A stretch of DNA of 64,000 bases. Source: Candidatus Harrisonbacteria bacterium. Lineage in GTDB: Bacteria > Patescibacteriota > Minisyncoccia > UBA6257 > 02-FULL-45-10c. The notes below the pieces were generated by a model. It worked only from the letters and a program-made list of their open reading frames with translations, did not search any database and had not been told where the DNA came from. A program made the position numbers and the translations under genes. The stretch is from positions 14,785 to 78,784 of the forward strand of contig JACROC010000007.1 in the NCBI GenBank assembly GCA_016214655.1, read 5' to 3'. Below are positions 10,231-30,316 of this stretch, piece by piece; position 1 is the stretch's first letter, and each line of letters starts with the position of its first letter.

Positions 10231-10300
10231 TCGTATTCCTCCTTTTTCAATGAACGTTAACTGCTAAAATAGATTAATAAAAAACTAAAATAAAGTCAAA
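10231..10300 (-). promoter_or_regulatory. conserved cassette promoter and 5'-UTR module
   Basis: minus strand: TTGACT-17-TAATCT then tttagcagttaacgttcattgaaaaaggagg ATG. Confidence 0.6.
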
Positions 10301-10413
10301 TCGCCGGGCGAATTCTCGTTTGATGAGATGTCGTCGTAGAAGATGCCGGGACTTATTTGGTGAGAATATACAATAAAGACCCGATATGAATCGGGTCTAT
10401 TGAAAAAATATCT

Positions 10414-11073
10414 TTACTCCTTACTCTTTGCCAAAATTTCCAGAATCCGCAAAAAGAGATTGATGATGTCGAGATACAAACTAATACATACATCAACCGC
10501 ATTATCAAGCGTGGCCGGGATCTCGCTCGCCCGGTGCATATCGTAACCGATATAAAGCGCAAAAATTCCTGCGGCAATATAGTGAATTACCGTGAACTTC
10601 GCGAGCGCTGGGATAAACAAAGAAAGAATGGACACGACCAGAAGCGCCGTAAGTGCTCCGAAAAGAGCGCCACCAATAGAACGATAAAAATTGGGAAACA
10701 TAAGTCCGGATAAAGCCATTACGCCCGTAACGGCCGCCGTAAGAGTTGCCGCTTCGGAAACGATTCCAGGATACATGACCTGATATTGCGCAAGTGCCGG
10801 TCCGAGTATCGCTCCGAATGGTATCACTACGAGATTATATCCGAGAAAAGAAACCAGTGCTGATCCGCTGGTACTAAGCAAAATACCGAGAAGAGGAAGG
10901 CCGAGACCAACTAAAAGGAACATAAGAATCCCTGGGCGCCAATTCGCTGTCAATTCGGAAACGATATAGGTAGCCACGAAACCCCAAGAGAGAACGCATC
11001 CCATGACAAAGTAGAATGCATTGCGCGACATAGTGTCAGAGCCAGAACGGTCAAATACATCTGCCTTAAGCAT
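10414..11073 (-). CDS. BI-1/YccA-like 7-TM membrane protein
   Basis: 219 aa, seven hydrophobic segments, size and topology typical of the Bax-inhibitor/YccA family. Confidence 0.5.
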   Translation of the reverse strand: MLKADVFDRSGSDTMSRNAFYFVMGCVLSWGFVATYIVSELTANWRPGILMFLLVGLGLPLLGILLSTSGSALVSFLGYNLVVIPFGAILGPALAQYQVMYPGIVSEAATLTAAVTGVMALSGLMFPNFYRSIGGALFGALTALLVVSILSLFIPALAKFTVIHYIAAGIFALYIGYDMHRASEIPATLDNAVDVCISLYLDIINLFLRILEILAKSKE

Positions 11074-11136
11074 CTCTCCACCCCCTTTTCAACGAGCGTT
11101 AACTGCTGATGGATATATTACAAAGAAAAATAAGTA
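11074..11136 (-). promoter_or_regulatory. conserved cassette promoter and 5'-UTR module
   Basis: ccttttcaacgagcgttaactgctgatggatatat on + strand, i.e. leader CAGCAGTTAACGCTCGTTGAAAAGG plus RBS on minus. Confidence 0.6.
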
Positions 11137-11146
11137 AAGTCAAATC

Positions 11147-11180
11147 GCTAAATCAGCAACTGGATCAGATTACCTGCCCG
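11147..11180 (+). repeat. cassette-junction repeat, variant 2
   Basis: aaatcagcaactggatcagattacctgcccgg. Confidence 0.6.
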
Positions 11181-11315
11181 GCCAAGGAACTGAATAGTGA
11201 AGTTATAAAAGAAAAACCTAAACAAAGATGGGTAAAAAATAACTGGGAGTTGCGTTTTTAATTTTTTTTAATTATTATATATATCAGATCTCTTAAATAA
11301 CGTAAGGAGGAAGAA

Positions 11316-11933
11316 TTGAATTTCAAAAAAATTTTTATTCCTTCTGCCCTAGTTATGACCATAGGGCTCACCTCATCCTGTAATCAAGCAGATAAGTCGC
11401 CAGGTCAGTCCGACACACGGCCATCGATAGAAACCCCGACGACTCAGAAGCCAGTGCCACCCGCAACCAAACTTGAAGATCCGGCAAAGAATTCAAAGCA
11501 AGAAAAAACACCTAAGCCACAATCCCAGAATAAACCCGCCGAAAAACCTACTGCCAAAGAAACGCCCCCGCCTTCAGTTGTCGAAAAACCAGTCGATGCC
11601 CCCAAGCCGAAAGAAAATCCGCCGGTAATCGAGCCCGAACCCAAACCCCCGGTTGTAGAAACAACACCCGTCAATCCGCCAGAGGAAATTGTTTTCAAAG
11701 CAACACCAGGAGACGTAACCTTCTTTCACGCGAAACATGGAACGAGGGAAAAACAATGCGCTGTTTGTCACGATACAATATTTCCTAAAGACAAAACAAA
11801 ACCCTTAAATTTTAAGGGGAATGTGCATCAGACGGCGACTACGAATAAAACCTCGTGCGCAACCTGCCATATGCCGGAGGGCAAAGCTTTTGCGGTCAGG
11901 GGAAATTGTATGAAGTGCCATAAGAATAAATAA
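11316..11933 (+). CDS. lipoprotein with C-terminal triheme c-type cytochrome domain (c7/c3-like)
   Basis: TTG start with AAGGAGG RBS; lipobox LTSSC; Pro-rich linker; three CxxCH motifs (CAVCH, CATCH, CMKCH) within 70 aa; terminator 11939-11966. Confidence 0.6.
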   Translation: MNFKKIFIPSALVMTIGLTSSCNQADKSPGQSDTRPSIETPTTQKPVPPATKLEDPAKNSKQEKTPKPQSQNKPAEKPTAKETPPPSVVEKPVDAPKPKENPPVIEPEPKPPVVETTPVNPPEEIVFKATPGDVTFFHAKHGTREKQCAVCHDTIFPKDKTKPLNFKGNVHQTATTNKTSCATCHMPEGKAFAVRGNCMKCHKNK

Positions 11934-12069
11934 AAGATAAGCGGTGGATTAATATCACCGCTTTTTAATATACAAATTTCAGAAAGTTAGGTTGCCCCTC
12001 CCCCTTACTCACTATGTTTTTATAAAATAAAAAACTCCCAACTGCATTGAGAGCAAAAAATAAGAACTG

Positions 12070-12324
12070 TTAGCTTTTCTTAAACTTCTTTCTTTTAGCC
12101 AGGAAATTCACTTCTTCTTTATGTAAGAGAAAGAGCTCGGTGCCGCTCCTGTCTTCTTGAGCCCAGAACGCGACTTCTTCACCTTGGGGCCAGATACTTA
12201 TAAGACGATATGAACCAGCGACTTCGGGGTAATTGGCTTTGAAAACAGGGTCTTTCAGATCTTGTTTATTCAGCTTAAACGTTGGTGTAACTGGCTCATC
12301 TTTCCGAAAGCCGATTCTTTCCAT
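12070..12324 (-). CDS. hypothetical protein
   Basis: 84 aa, second gene of a two-gene cassette. Confidence 0.4.
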   Translation of the reverse strand: MERIGFRKDEPVTPTFKLNKQDLKDPVFKANYPEVAGSYRLISIWPQGEEVAFWAQEDRSGTELFLLHKEEVNFLAKRKKFKKS

Positions 12325-12337
12325 TACGTCGGCGAAT

Positions 12338-28636: not shown

Positions 28637-28657
28637 CCTCGTCACCTTCCTTTTCAA

Positions 28658-28712
28658 TGAACGTCAACTGCTGAAAATATATTACAAGAAAATATAAATA
28701 AGGTCAAACTAA
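28658..28712 (-). promoter_or_regulatory. conserved cassette promoter and 5'-UTR module
   Basis: minus: TTGACCttatttatattttcttgTAATATattttcagcagttgacgttcattgaaaaggaagg. Confidence 0.6.
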
Positions 28713-28746
28713 TCTGGGTGCCATCGTGTGGGATGTTAGAACTTGT
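28711..28746 (+). repeat. cassette-junction repeat, variant 1
   Basis: aatctgggtgccatcgtgtgggatgttagaacttg followed by ttataaaagaaaaaaccgc terminator flank. Confidence 0.7.
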
Positions 28747-28808
28747 TTGGTTAGTTTATAAAAGAAAAAACCGCTCAAATTTGATAGCGGTTTCTAATTT
28801 CATAAATT

Positions 28809-29609
28809 CTATACTGAAAGTTTCATAACTTTATCAACAAATCTCCACCAATCATCATCTGAAGAAATCACGTCCCAAAAAACCTCCAAGTCCCTTTCCG
28901 TGTATTCCGAAAAGTGCTTTTTGGAAAATCTCTGTCGGCGGTATCGCTGATTAAAGTCGCCCAAAAGAAAATTATACTTCGACTTCGGCCCCTCAATACA
29001 ATTTGATTTCGTAATCGACTCAAGAAATTTTCTCCACCAATCCGAAACTAGAGATACCATACCGCCCCTTAATTCCTTTACCATTTCTTCTGCTAAAATA
29101 GATAATAATTGACGAGATGATTGCGTAAGGCCCTTGCATCCGATATATGCTAAACAAATCGCTGGACGATCATCTTTTAATCGACAACCACCTGGTCCTA
29201 AAAAAACACATTTGCTTCGAGGCTTACCTTCTAAATTTGCCACGCTTTCCTTTGTGTTTTCTGTACACAACCACTCCAAGTCTGGTTCCGGAAATTTGAA
29301 TTTAGGGTTTTTTAAAAGAAGATAAAAGATGTCATGGGCTTTGATCGGCGGATAATTCTGATAACAACATGAACATTCGCCCTCTTGATGTATTTGGGAT
29401 GAGAAGTCGGTCTGTTTAGAAAATATCTCCAAGTGCCTCTTGCGGTAGTTATCTATTCTTTCAATTTCTGGCAGAGGAGGCGGGTTTACTTTTTGAATCA
29501 ATATTCTAGCGAAATCAGCAAATTTATTTAAATTTTCAACGATCTTCCGATAATCAGGCGGATTTGCTTCTAAATACACCCTACCCCCAATCTGCAGATT
29601 TTGAATCAA
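28809..29609 (-). CDS. YkgJ-family (CxxCxxCC-type) putative Zn/Fe-chelating domain protein
   Basis: ECSCCYQNY and CVFLGPGGCRLKDDRPAICLAY match the PF03692-type Cys-cluster pattern. Confidence 0.45.
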   Translation of the reverse strand: MIQNLQIGGRVYLEANPPDYRKIVENLNKFADFARILIQKVNPPPLPEIERIDNYRKRHLEIFSKQTDFSSQIHQEGECSCCYQNYPPIKAHDIFYLLLKNPKFKFPEPDLEWLCTENTKESVANLEGKPRSKCVFLGPGGCRLKDDRPAICLAYIGCKGLTQSSRQLLSILAEEMVKELRGGMVSLVSDWWRKFLESITKSNCIEGPKSKYNFLLGDFNQRYRRQRFSKKHFSEYTERDLEVFWDVISSDDDWWRFVDKVMKLSV

Positions 29610-29640
29610 TATTAATGAAAAAATTAGAAAAAGTCAAATA

Positions 29641-29680
29641 AATCTGGGTCGTCTAGTAAGTGATGTGAGGTCCCGCGCGA
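29641..29680 (+). repeat. cassette-junction repeat, variant 1b
   Basis: aatctgggtcgtctagtaagtgatgtgaggtc; shares tctagt with the tRNA-His end. Confidence 0.55.
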
Positions 29681-29845
29681 ATCTATTTAACGGGCTTATA
29701 AAGTGGAGTTCCTAAAGCCTAATTTTTATCTTGTTGATGCCCTCTACCATTTTTTAATATATATCCTTCAGAAAATAGGTTAAGATTTTCTAGTCAAATC
29801 TTGTGCGATAAAAAATCCGCTCGTTCACGAGCGGATTTGGTTTGG

Positions 29846-30247
29846 CTAACAAGGATTGAAAACTGACCCGGCAATCACTTCTCCGATGGCCATTAAAAGA
29901 AAACCTTCGAAGAAACCTCCTCCAAATATGAAAAAGCTTATTGGAATACCACCAAAAAATAAAATTAATCCTAGAATTCCCATGTATAACCGTATCTGTG
30001 ACGCTGCCTCCGCCAACTTCTTCTGACCAACACAAGCCTTTAGGGCAATCGAATATTTCCAAATCAGTATCATAATAAAAACAGCCAGCGACATAGAAAA
30101 TAAAACAATAACAGTCTCGGCCCAGCTAATAGGCAGAAGGAAAATCAACAGGGCGCCAGCCGGACACACTAGCGTGATTAAAACTGATAAAAAATATAGC
30201 TGTGCTAAATGCTTAGCGGATTTTAGAAATGCTCTCATCGACTTCAT
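29846..30247 (-). CDS. small membrane protein (first cassette next to tRNA-His)
   Basis: real start MKSMRAFL; four TM helices. Confidence 0.5.
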   Translation of the reverse strand: MKSMRAFLKSAKHLAQLYFLSVLITLVCPAGALLIFLLPISWAETVIVLFSMSLAVFIMILIWKYSIALKACVGQKKLAEAASQIRLYMGILGLILFFGGIPISFFIFGGGFFEGFLLMAIGEVIAGSVFNPC

Positions 30248-30265
30248 TTTTGCCCCCCTTTTCAA

Positions 30266-30316
30266 AGAACGTTAACTGCTGATGAATATCATATCAGGAA
30301 ATAAGAATAAAGTTAA
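30266..30316 (-). promoter_or_regulatory. conserved cassette promoter and 5'-UTR module abutting tRNA-His
   Basis: ccctttcaaagaacgttaactgctgatgaatatcatatcagg on + strand, then aaagttaaat and the tRNA 3' end. Confidence 0.6.

Follow-up and report, generated by a model that had tools for sequence, protein, structure and literature searches.

Why should genes of unrelated function, lying side by side in one part of a bacterial chromosome, be preceded one after another by nearly the same promoter and 5' untranslated region (UTR)? The question is raised by a 64-kb stretch of the chromosome of Candidatus Harrisonbacteria (Parcubacteria, in the candidate phyla radiation, or CPR), which is called the window here and to which all window counts refer. 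The explanation that we favor, with little more than even confidence, is that this promoter-leader module serves as the standard expression head of small cassettes, which site-specific recombination would have stacked behind a tRNA-His gene, so that a hypervariable island grew from its 3' end. CPR (Patescibacteria) genomes measure ~0.6-1 Mb, and to our knowledge few classical mobile elements or regulators have been described for them. Gene acquisition and expression in CPR are poorly understood, and the island offers a concrete, testable mechanism for the gain of genes and their immediate expression.

The module is 65 nt long and reads, on the minus strand, TTGAC(A/T), 17 nt, TAATAT or TAAGAT, 7 nt, AGYAGTTAACGYTCNTTGAAAAGGAGG, 3-11 nt and ATG. 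Its 28-nt leader, CAGCAGTTAACGTTCGTTGAAAAGGAGG, has eight matches with at most three mismatches in the window, all on the minus strand, where none was expected (100 shuffles), and a looser search of the window yielded 10 copies. These 10, together with eight distinct copies from metagenomic contigs, were combined into a model built from sequence only (R1). The alignment of the 18 copies gives ATTTGAC(T/A), a variable AT-rich spacer of 17 nt, TAATAT or TAAGAT and ATTCATC for the promoter, followed by the near-invariant leader AG(C/T)AGTTAACG(T/C)TC(N)TTGAAAAGG, GGAGG-like bases and, 3-11 nt further on, the ATG. Conservation is maximal at the -35 element, at the -10 element and from +1 through the Shine-Dalgarno (SD) sequence. 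The observation of a repeated module is therefore real and far above chance.

Within the window, R1 recovers 10 strong copies (56-69 bits) and seven weaker or partial ones, of which three are weak but full-length (12-20 bits) and four are promoter-only (7-20 bits). The strong copies coincide with 10 places listed in an earlier, sequence-only reading of this DNA, whose coordinates give the base immediately 5' of each ATG; two more copies that it called diverged are present but weak, one of them retaining the promoter half only (Table 1). That reading described the promoter as TTGACA-17-TAA(T/G)AT. The spacing and the -10 element hold, but TTGACA is found in only about half of the copies (others have TTGACT, TTGACC, TTTAAC or TTTTAC), and the copy at 18543 has lost its -35 element altogether. 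The distance from SD to ATG, given as 5-9 nt, measures 3-11 nt. The sequence does support the broader claim of a sigma-70-type promoter and a full 5' UTR preceding unrelated genes; a promoter scan ranked the module promoters among its top matches (9-10/12, with the 17-nt spacer).

The module always lies in gene orientation, with its end 3-11 nt before the ATG. Strong copies precede non-homologous genes, among them those for a Bax1-I family protein, a PspC protein, an M32 peptidase and unknown proteins, and cargo as a whole is unrelated in function, extending to cytidine deaminase, MFS, HD, NYN and cytochrome c7 proteins and many unknowns. The protein carried by copy 2 is an ORFan whose only match among 5.8 billion proteins is itself. 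The M32 peptidase has a 100% identical match under the name Candidatus Harrisonbacteria bacterium. Its nearest non-self homologs share 45-50% identity with it, and those that are named belong to Nitrospira, Bacteroidetes and Dehalococcoidia; relatives so distant, the named ones from other phyla, mark it as a horizontally acquired gene that now stands under the lineage's own promoter and leader. Homologs of the Bax1-I protein, in turn, carry the names Parcubacteria or Patescibacteria. No age gradient is apparent when R1 scores in the window are set against distance from the tRNA.

Since a TTG lies inside the leader, the module predictably misleads gene callers. The open reading frames (ORFs) 29846-30265, 28166-28657 and 25056-25319 were called from this TTG, and the public annotation of the second likewise adopts it as the start, giving a protein of 163 aa. 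These three are indeed mis-starts, as the earlier reading had proposed.

Module copies, strong and weak, are confined to 10240-30319, in an island that begins at the tRNA-His gene. The outcome that the earlier reading named as refuting, a motif upstream of most genes, is not seen in this window: none of the ~35 genes beyond the island has a copy before it, and the best R1 match in the rest of the window, at 58592-58627, has an E-value of 2.3. The GC content is 0.36-0.39 in the island versus 0.40-0.45 in its flanks, where the genes are those of an ordinary chromosome (RseP, IleRS, ArgRS, TrpRS, RNase Y, RNase J, SmpB/tmRNA and IF3). Cumulative GC skew keeps a single direction through the whole window, with no switch. 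Among 185,579 species genomes (one per GTDB species), the leader pattern has nine isolated matches, all without a promoter or SD beside them, no more than chance would give; in viral contigs it has none. Metagenomes yielded 14 matches, and nine loci (eight distinct contigs, GC 34-46%) have the full promoter, leader and SD.

Cassette boundaries become apparent when the minus strand is read outward from the tRNA. Some 27 junctions follow a recurring order of cargo ORF(s), intrinsic terminator hairpin, tail TTTTTCTTTTATAAACTAACCAA, a site of ~32 nt and the next -35 element, which overlaps the final Ts of the preceding site. Terminator-like sites number 45, versus 17.5 +/- 4.2 expected. The site has the architecture GTTCTAAY-N16-CCCAGATT, is present at nearly every junction and has the same orientation as the tRNA. 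By local alignment, the sites are degenerate copies, with small indels, of the tRNA-His segment AGTTCGATTCTCTCTAGGCACCCA plus GATT, and the core that recurs between cassettes combines the end of the tRNA-His gene, GGCACCCA, with the four nucleotides that follow it (GATT). Three subtypes, H (...CACACGATGGCA), P (...CCAGTTGCCGA) and D (...CACTAGACGA), all have the ACCCAGATT end; a tRNA-His normally ends in C73 and CCA (ACCCA).

Exact ACCCAGATT, whose occurrence at 30316-30324 is the genuine tRNA-His end, is found eight times in the window versus 0.44 expected, always on the minus strand and always in the island, and AGTTCTAA is found 16 times versus 2.6 expected, with 12 of the 16 inside the island. 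Local alignment to the tRNA-His sequence from T loop to 3' end beats 1000 of 1000 shuffles for five of the 10 sites tested (H-type, four of seven). In viral contigs the site patterns gave 32 and seven matches, all in unrelated sequence without terminator or TTGAC context, as expected by chance. The sequence pattern is the one classically left when site-specific integration recurs at a tRNA gene; crossover probably falls within the exact 12-nt identity, GGCACCCAGATT, and the module would be the first thing on its P' side. The earlier reading had noted neither the tRNA-His gene nor the pseudo-tRNA sites and terminators, but its proposal that the module forms part of an att arm pointed in the right direction, in that modules start 0-5 nt past a tRNA-His-end-like core at the tRNA itself and at four further copies. 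However, the copies at 22387 and 21766, which have no such site, match the consensus as well as copies with one, so the leader is not conserved merely as an att or recombination arm.

Two other repeated patterns accompany the junctions. The motif GTGAGT-N4-GGGGTGGGGTAAC lies 20-60 nt upstream of several tRNA-like sites and occurs also in the related locus L023; it may be an arm-type binding site. A second pattern consists of CCAG(A/G)TT, a hairpin (AAAAATCGTGATA...GGTTTTTT) and TTTGTGATATAAT, which includes an extended -10, and in L027 it stands directly behind tRNA-His. The copy near 4750 could be the outer boundary of the island, in which case its length would be ~25.5 kb.

Related loci show the same units in different surroundings. 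In L017, L024 and L026 the module lies 0-27 nt behind tRNA-His, and the L027 island likewise begins at tRNA-His. Between the Bax1-I cassette (window 10375-11145) and its counterparts, identity is 82.5% for L017, L024 and L026 and 77% for L027 (blastn); homology runs from the -35 element to just beyond the terminator, and the neighbors differ in all three genomes. Between tRNA-His and this cassette lie ~19 kb in the window, two genes in L024 and four genes in L027, including some with SET and RibD_C domains. A two-gene cassette (12024-12639) recurs in L010 (2887-3486; blastn) directly behind tRNA-Gly(GCC), and there it has a canonical module where the window copy has a decayed one. In units common to several genomes, homology breaks at the -35 element or leader and again at the terminator. 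L023 also contains a second leader type, AGTAACTAAATTTATTAAAAA, behind the same promoter, which looks like an A/T-shifted derivative of the main leader.

From these features we infer a mechanism for the growth of the island. Each cassette reads as a complete transcription unit, opening with a near-consensus sigma-70 promoter (TTGACW, 17 nt, TAATAT/TAAGAT). Transcription is predicted to start at the A of AGCAG, ~7 nt past the -10 element, in which case the conserved block would be the entire 5' UTR, ~30 nt long and unstructured, with an A-rich tract and a strong SD, GAAAAGGAGG, whose distance to the ATG is 3-11 nt. Next come the cargo, of one to three genes, an intrinsic terminator with the tail TTTTTCTTTTATAAACTAACCAA and a degenerate ~32-nt copy of tRNA-His from T loop to CCA ending in (G)GCACCCAGATT. 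Recombination at the core between a cassette and the tRNA-His end, by a recombinase acting in trans, would set the incoming promoter directly behind the tRNA, while older cassettes would be pushed outward with a pseudo-tRNA site still before each. Any cargo, foreign genes and ORFans included, would thereby receive immediate constitutive transcription and efficient translation. An orphan promoter at 13093-13131 looks like an emptied cassette that has lost its cargo.

If this is correct, then 20-26 kb of the chromosome would be a series of plug-and-play cassettes whose cargo, foreign genes and ORFans included, comes pre-fitted with a host-adapted promoter, 5' UTR and terminator. The module consensus would also be a candidate strong constitutive expression signal for organisms that are not yet culturable or engineerable.

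Several observations weigh against cassette accretion. No integrase, resolvase or transposase family (Pfam, NCBIfam) was detected among window ORFs of at least 70 aa or in the neighboring loci of relatives, the analysis covering 64 kb of the genome, and neither excised circles nor empty sites were seen. The match to the resident tRNA-His extends over only 12 nt, and elsewhere the site exceeds, by 5 nt, the tRNA segment that it resembles. The P-type site of L017 resembles the tRNA-His of the window better than L017's own. A tRNA-Gly-specific duplication of the att site in L010 was considered and rejected, as the distal site there is unlike tRNA-Gly. Uniformity is higher over the first 24 nt of the leader than in the 3' part of the SD, where GGAGG, GGAAA, GGGGG, GGAAG and GGAGA all occur. 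Plain expression leaves this 24-nt uniformity unexplained, and so leaves room for a sequence-specific factor (a regulon) or for homogenization by junction recombination. The constraint is also not absolute, for the orthologous Bax1-I cassettes of L017 and L027 have drifted leaders.

Two other kinds of element were considered. For a dif/Xer-type site, no XerD-arm-like motif was seen by eye (no dedicated dif/Xer test was made). For a promoter borne by a miniature inverted-repeat element (MITE), no terminal inverted repeats were seen in the junction sequences read by eye, the repeat search covering direct repeats only.

The leader itself allows several readings. The conserved block from the predicted +1 to the A-rich tract and GGAGG fits an unstructured, high-efficiency translation initiation region. 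Strong SD leaders stabilize mRNA in Bacillus (PMC5737220, PMC4113751). The genes for RNase Y and RNase J are both located in the window, and given these two enzymes, ribosome loading near the 5' end could protect or stabilize the mRNA. It is very improbable that the leader is a structured RNA, such as the UUAAC/GUUGA hairpin suggested previously or a riboswitch-like element controlling access to the SD. A 5-bp stem can be drawn, but its minimum free energy (MFE) is -1.6 kcal/mol (z +0.14), a value equaled by 99 of 200 shuffles, no compensatory changes occur, and the sole variable stem position breaks the closing pair in four of 18 sequences. An Rfam scan of 9000-31300 (E <= 10) returned only two tRNAs and noise, with no leader family and no pseudo-tRNA called. 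A regulon, in which a trans-acting protein or RNA would recognize +1 to +24 as a DNA operator or as the mRNA 5' end and co-regulate the island genes, the interaction keeping the sequence, is unlikely, though less so than a structured RNA. The uniformity of the first 24 nt relative to the 3' part of the SD is consistent with it, as are the identical consensus retained across contigs of 34-46% GC and an operator-like palindrome at junctions of the more distant locus L031, described below. However, the segment has no overall dyad symmetry, and changes at the variable position (G/A/T/C) disrupt the DNA dyad as well as the RNA stem, its symmetric partner being invariant. This asymmetry argues against a simple dimeric operator. 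In addition, the only candidate regulator found is a weak winged-helix match below the Pfam cut-off (24264-24557, E = 9e-4), and the window contains no antisense copy.

Other explanations concern how the repeats came to be distributed. Perhaps the region is an ordinary variable one, in which module and junctions spread by homologous recombination or gene conversion, possibly after DNA uptake, and a small number of ancient integrations of larger elements left the tRNA-like repeats behind. The lack of a recombinase in window ORFs and related loci would be accounted for, a junction of ~150 nt is long enough for RecA-type exchange, the spacers group into a small set of haplotypes (S1, S2) instead of showing free drift, modules without a site lie inside multi-gene blocks (22387, 21766), and mobile promoters have been documented in many genomes (PMC3488235, PMC3575422). 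Such propagation nevertheless seems quite unlikely when confronted with the fixed site in tRNA orientation at nearly every junction, the three site subtypes that all have a tRNA-His-like end (ACCCA), and the sharp promoter-to-terminator boundaries of units that genomes share. A classical integron, or a cluster of attC sites lacking integron-integrases (CALIN), would have attC junctions that IntI recombines as folded single strands. Although mostly single-gene, co-oriented cassettes, one repeat per junction and many ORFans recall such arrays, this identification deserves very little credence. Six junction sites folded as single-stranded DNA gave no attC-like structure (MFE -1.1 to -4.5 kcal/mol, z -0.39 to +1.56) and lack inverted repeats of the R''/R' or L''/L' kind, the window yielded no integrase family, and the cassettes have promoters and terminators of their own. 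Almost no weight at all can be given to the notion that the module simply reflects the usual promoter and ribosome-binding site (RBS) surroundings of genes in this genome and means nothing in particular. TTGACA/TATAAT promoters and GGAGG do belong to the common consensus elements, but the 44 kb of the window outside the island contain no copy, leader matches in the species genomes stay at chance level, and the leader is absent from three more distant Parcubacteria loci found via the Bax1-I protein.

Cassette accretion might extend beyond this lineage. The distant Parcubacteria locus L031, which is among the three found via the Bax1-I protein, has, at 2264-13500, an array of its own, made up of a terminator, TTCATTCCAAACAG, a GTTCTGAC-N-CCACCCAGCG site and a different repeated promoter, TTGACAAATACCACGAGAGTGGTATTTT, whose spacer contains a palindrome (ATACCAC-N4-GTGGTAT, 7+7) that recurs at at least nine junctions and looks like a common operator. 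Because the layout is the same and the promoter different, any single promoter module looks younger than the site family and the cassette layout, and the expression head would be lineage-specific. A broader and more tentative proposal, which we consider more apt to fail than to hold, is a Parcubacteria gene-capture platform with the tRNA-His 3' end as the insertion point, pseudo-tRNA-His sites in place of attC, standardized units and a trans-acting chromosomal recombinase. The shared layout in L031 suggests that such a system would be old and widespread in Parcubacteria, where it could be a main route of gene gain. A literature search found no published description of such arrays in CPR bacteria.

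Table 1. Positions of module copies, sites, terminator tails and other elements (window coordinates unless a related locus is named; bits and E-values from R1)
Feature	Position	Strand	Evidence and remarks
tRNA-His (GTG)	30321-30392	-	ARAGORN; Rfam tRNA, 65 bits
Module copy 1	30254-30319	-	65.3 bits; begins 2 nt past tRNA-His; true ATG 30247
Module copy 2	28646-28711	-	59.5 bits; abuts H-type site; ATG 28636; cargo ORFan
Module copy 3	25308-25374	-	58.8 bits; back to back with plus-strand variant 25371-25424; ATG 25301
Module copy 4	24030-24096	-	56.3 bits; abuts H-type site with inserted hairpin; ATG 24024
Module copy 5	22387-22452	-	65.8 bits; directly after terminator T-tract, without tRNA-like site
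Module copy 6	21766-21831	-	65.7 bits; directly after terminator T-tract, without tRNA-like site
Module copy 7	18543-18604	-	62.9 bits; -35 lost; precedes M32 carboxypeptidase (Pfam)
Module copy 8	14657-14722	-	64.6 bits; abuts H-type site; PspC-domain gene
Module copy 9	11081-11147	-	69.1 bits; Bax1-I family gene
Module copy 10	10240-10302	-	56 bits; 267-aa protein, no assigned function
Decayed module	12605-12662	-	12.4 bits, E 0.019; heads two-gene cassette
Promoter half kept, leader diverged (ACTTTCCGGTTCGTTCAAAACTGAAAAAAAGGGG)	23500-23572	-	10.6 bits, model positions 4-41, match 23535-23572, E 0.067
Module variant, leader TAGCAGCAAAAGCTGTTTGAAAAAGGAGG	12693-12761	+	17.2 bits; repeat family D15; absent from the sequence-only reading
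Module variant	25371-25424	+	20.4 bits; absent from the sequence-only reading
Orphan promoter half, without leader or ORF	13093-13131	-	20.3 bits, model positions 4-42; terminator ~50 nt on; stretch 13040-13131; absent from the sequence-only reading
Promoter-only copies	14308-14346; 29609-29641		R1; absent from the sequence-only reading
H-type site GTTCTAACATCCCACACGATGGCACCCAGATT (pseudo tRNA-His 3' part)	28711-28742	-	Repeat families D4, D9
Further H-type copies	26692-26723, 25690-25721, 24101-24146, 21250-21283, 18605-18637, 14722-14754, 14350-14379, 12967-12998		Repeat families D4, D9
P-type site GCTCTAATCTGTTCCAGTTGCCGACCCAGATT	16901-16932	-	Repeat families D12, D13
P-type relatives	24975-25005, 28105-28136, ~20570-20620, ~11150-11190, ~9305-9350		Repeat families D12, D13; alignment
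D-type site GTTCTAGCATTATTCACTAGACGACCCAGATT	19822-19853	-	Repeat family D14; second D-type core 29641-29660
Conserved tail: terminator hairpin and TTTTTCTTTTATAAACTAACCAA	28743-28790	-	Repeat families D8, D9, D11
Same tail elsewhere	~21284-21323, 12999-13045, 16933-16978, 25006-25048, 9360-9409		Repeat families D8, D9, D11
GTGAGT-N4-GGGGTGGGGTAAC	24167-24208, 26737-26778, 14774-14815, 11991-12032, ~27210	-	Also L023
CCAG(A/G)TT-hairpin pattern	4700-4765	-
CCAG(A/G)TT-hairpin pattern	16860-16900; L027 728-790; L023 1745-1800
Second leader type	L023 393-457, 2127-2187
GC-rich element, ~170 nt	30975-31150	-	Directly after tRNA-Pro
Homologous GC-rich element	L027 2345-2520
High-GC stretch	30545-30877	-	By eye
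High-GC stretch	33550-34200	+	By eye
High-GC stretch, second promoter type	L014 1760-2200		Just upstream of tRNA-His
Intron-split tRNA gene	33245-33545	+	No ARAGORN call
Group I intron	33267-33513		Rfam RF00028, 92 bits
HNH-like ORF	32785-33159	-	Adjoins intron-split tRNA gene
IleRS-like protein	48961-52539	-	1192 aa

Several other elements were noted near tRNA genes. A tRNA-Pro gene lies immediately upstream of tRNA-His, and behind it is a GC-rich element of ~170 nt with a long hairpin (CCTCACCCCG...CGGGGTGAGG) that ends in a duplicate tRNA-Pro 3' end; its homolog in L027 ends in a duplicate tRNA-His 3' end. RNAalifold of the two gave 32 pairs, five of them compensatory, with no Rfam match, and the element may be a small one that targets tRNA ends or a structured RNA. 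Stretches of high GC, judged by eye against a genome value of ~40%, stand beside tRNA genes behind a second promoter type (cacTTGACA-N17-TATATT), an arrangement found again in L014. The small GC-rich ORFs upstream of tRNA-His in the window and in L014 show no similarity to each other. Elsewhere in the window, a group I intron splits a tRNA gene, next to which lies an HNH-like ORF, and the IleRS-like protein has a histidine-phosphatase domain (His_Phos_1) inserted at residues 498-684.

Comparison with known systems helps to place the island and its module. At the level of the leader, the stabilizing SD (STAB-SD) of cryIIIA and the hbs leader (PMC4113751, PMC5737220, PMC3997798) offer a parallel, in sequence resemblance only, with a GAAAGGAGG-type SD near the mRNA 5' end in a host that has RNase J and RNase Y. 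However, a STAB-SD is not used for initiation of the downstream gene, whereas the SD of the module is the RBS itself. Putative mobile promoters (PMC3488235, PMC3575422) likewise consist of near-identical promoter DNA before non-homologous genes, within and between genomes, and the module falls under their operational definition (PMC3488235). It differs from them in that the repeat spans the whole 5' UTR to the SD, occurs in one island only and goes together with an att-like site and a terminator tail.

The arrangement of units finds its parallels among integrative elements. Cis-mobilizable elements that accrete in tandem (PMC5704250, PMC7563491) have a layout into which the island would fit, with att-flanked units that lack an integrase, are arrayed at one site and are presumed to be moved in trans, but they derive from integrative and conjugative elements and integrative and mobilizable elements of Firmicutes and are much larger, and neither mobilization nor a helper element or recombinase was observed for the island. 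The tycheposons of Prochlorococcus (10.1101/2020.12.28.424599) and the ssrA islands of Dehalococcoides (PMC3146451) start at a tRNA or tmRNA 3' end, contain scattered partial copies of that end, have newer elements that displace older ones inward, and inhabit streamlined genomes with few classical mobile elements. The island likewise starts at a tRNA 3' end and has 3'-end direct repeats. Those elements, however, span several kilobases and come with an integrase, often together with replication genes, whereas the units of the island are tenfold smaller (0.4-2 kb), encode no recombinase or replication gene and have a standardized promoter, leader and terminator.

Chromosomal integron arrays, including sedentary integrons and CALINs (IntegronFinder, PMC4889954), resemble the island in their long one-directional series of mostly single-gene cassettes, with a repeat per junction and growth from a fixed point. 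Yet none of the defining integron features looked for (IntI, an attC fold, promoterless cassettes) was found. The 64-kb window contains neither IntI nor attI, and the junctions are degenerate tRNA-His 3' segments rather than hairpin attC sites. Integron cassettes are mostly promoterless and rely on Pc, whereas each cassette of the island has its own promoter, leader and terminator. Overall, the island is best read as an array of integrase-less cassettes that is integron-like in its logic and tRNA-island-like in its chemistry.

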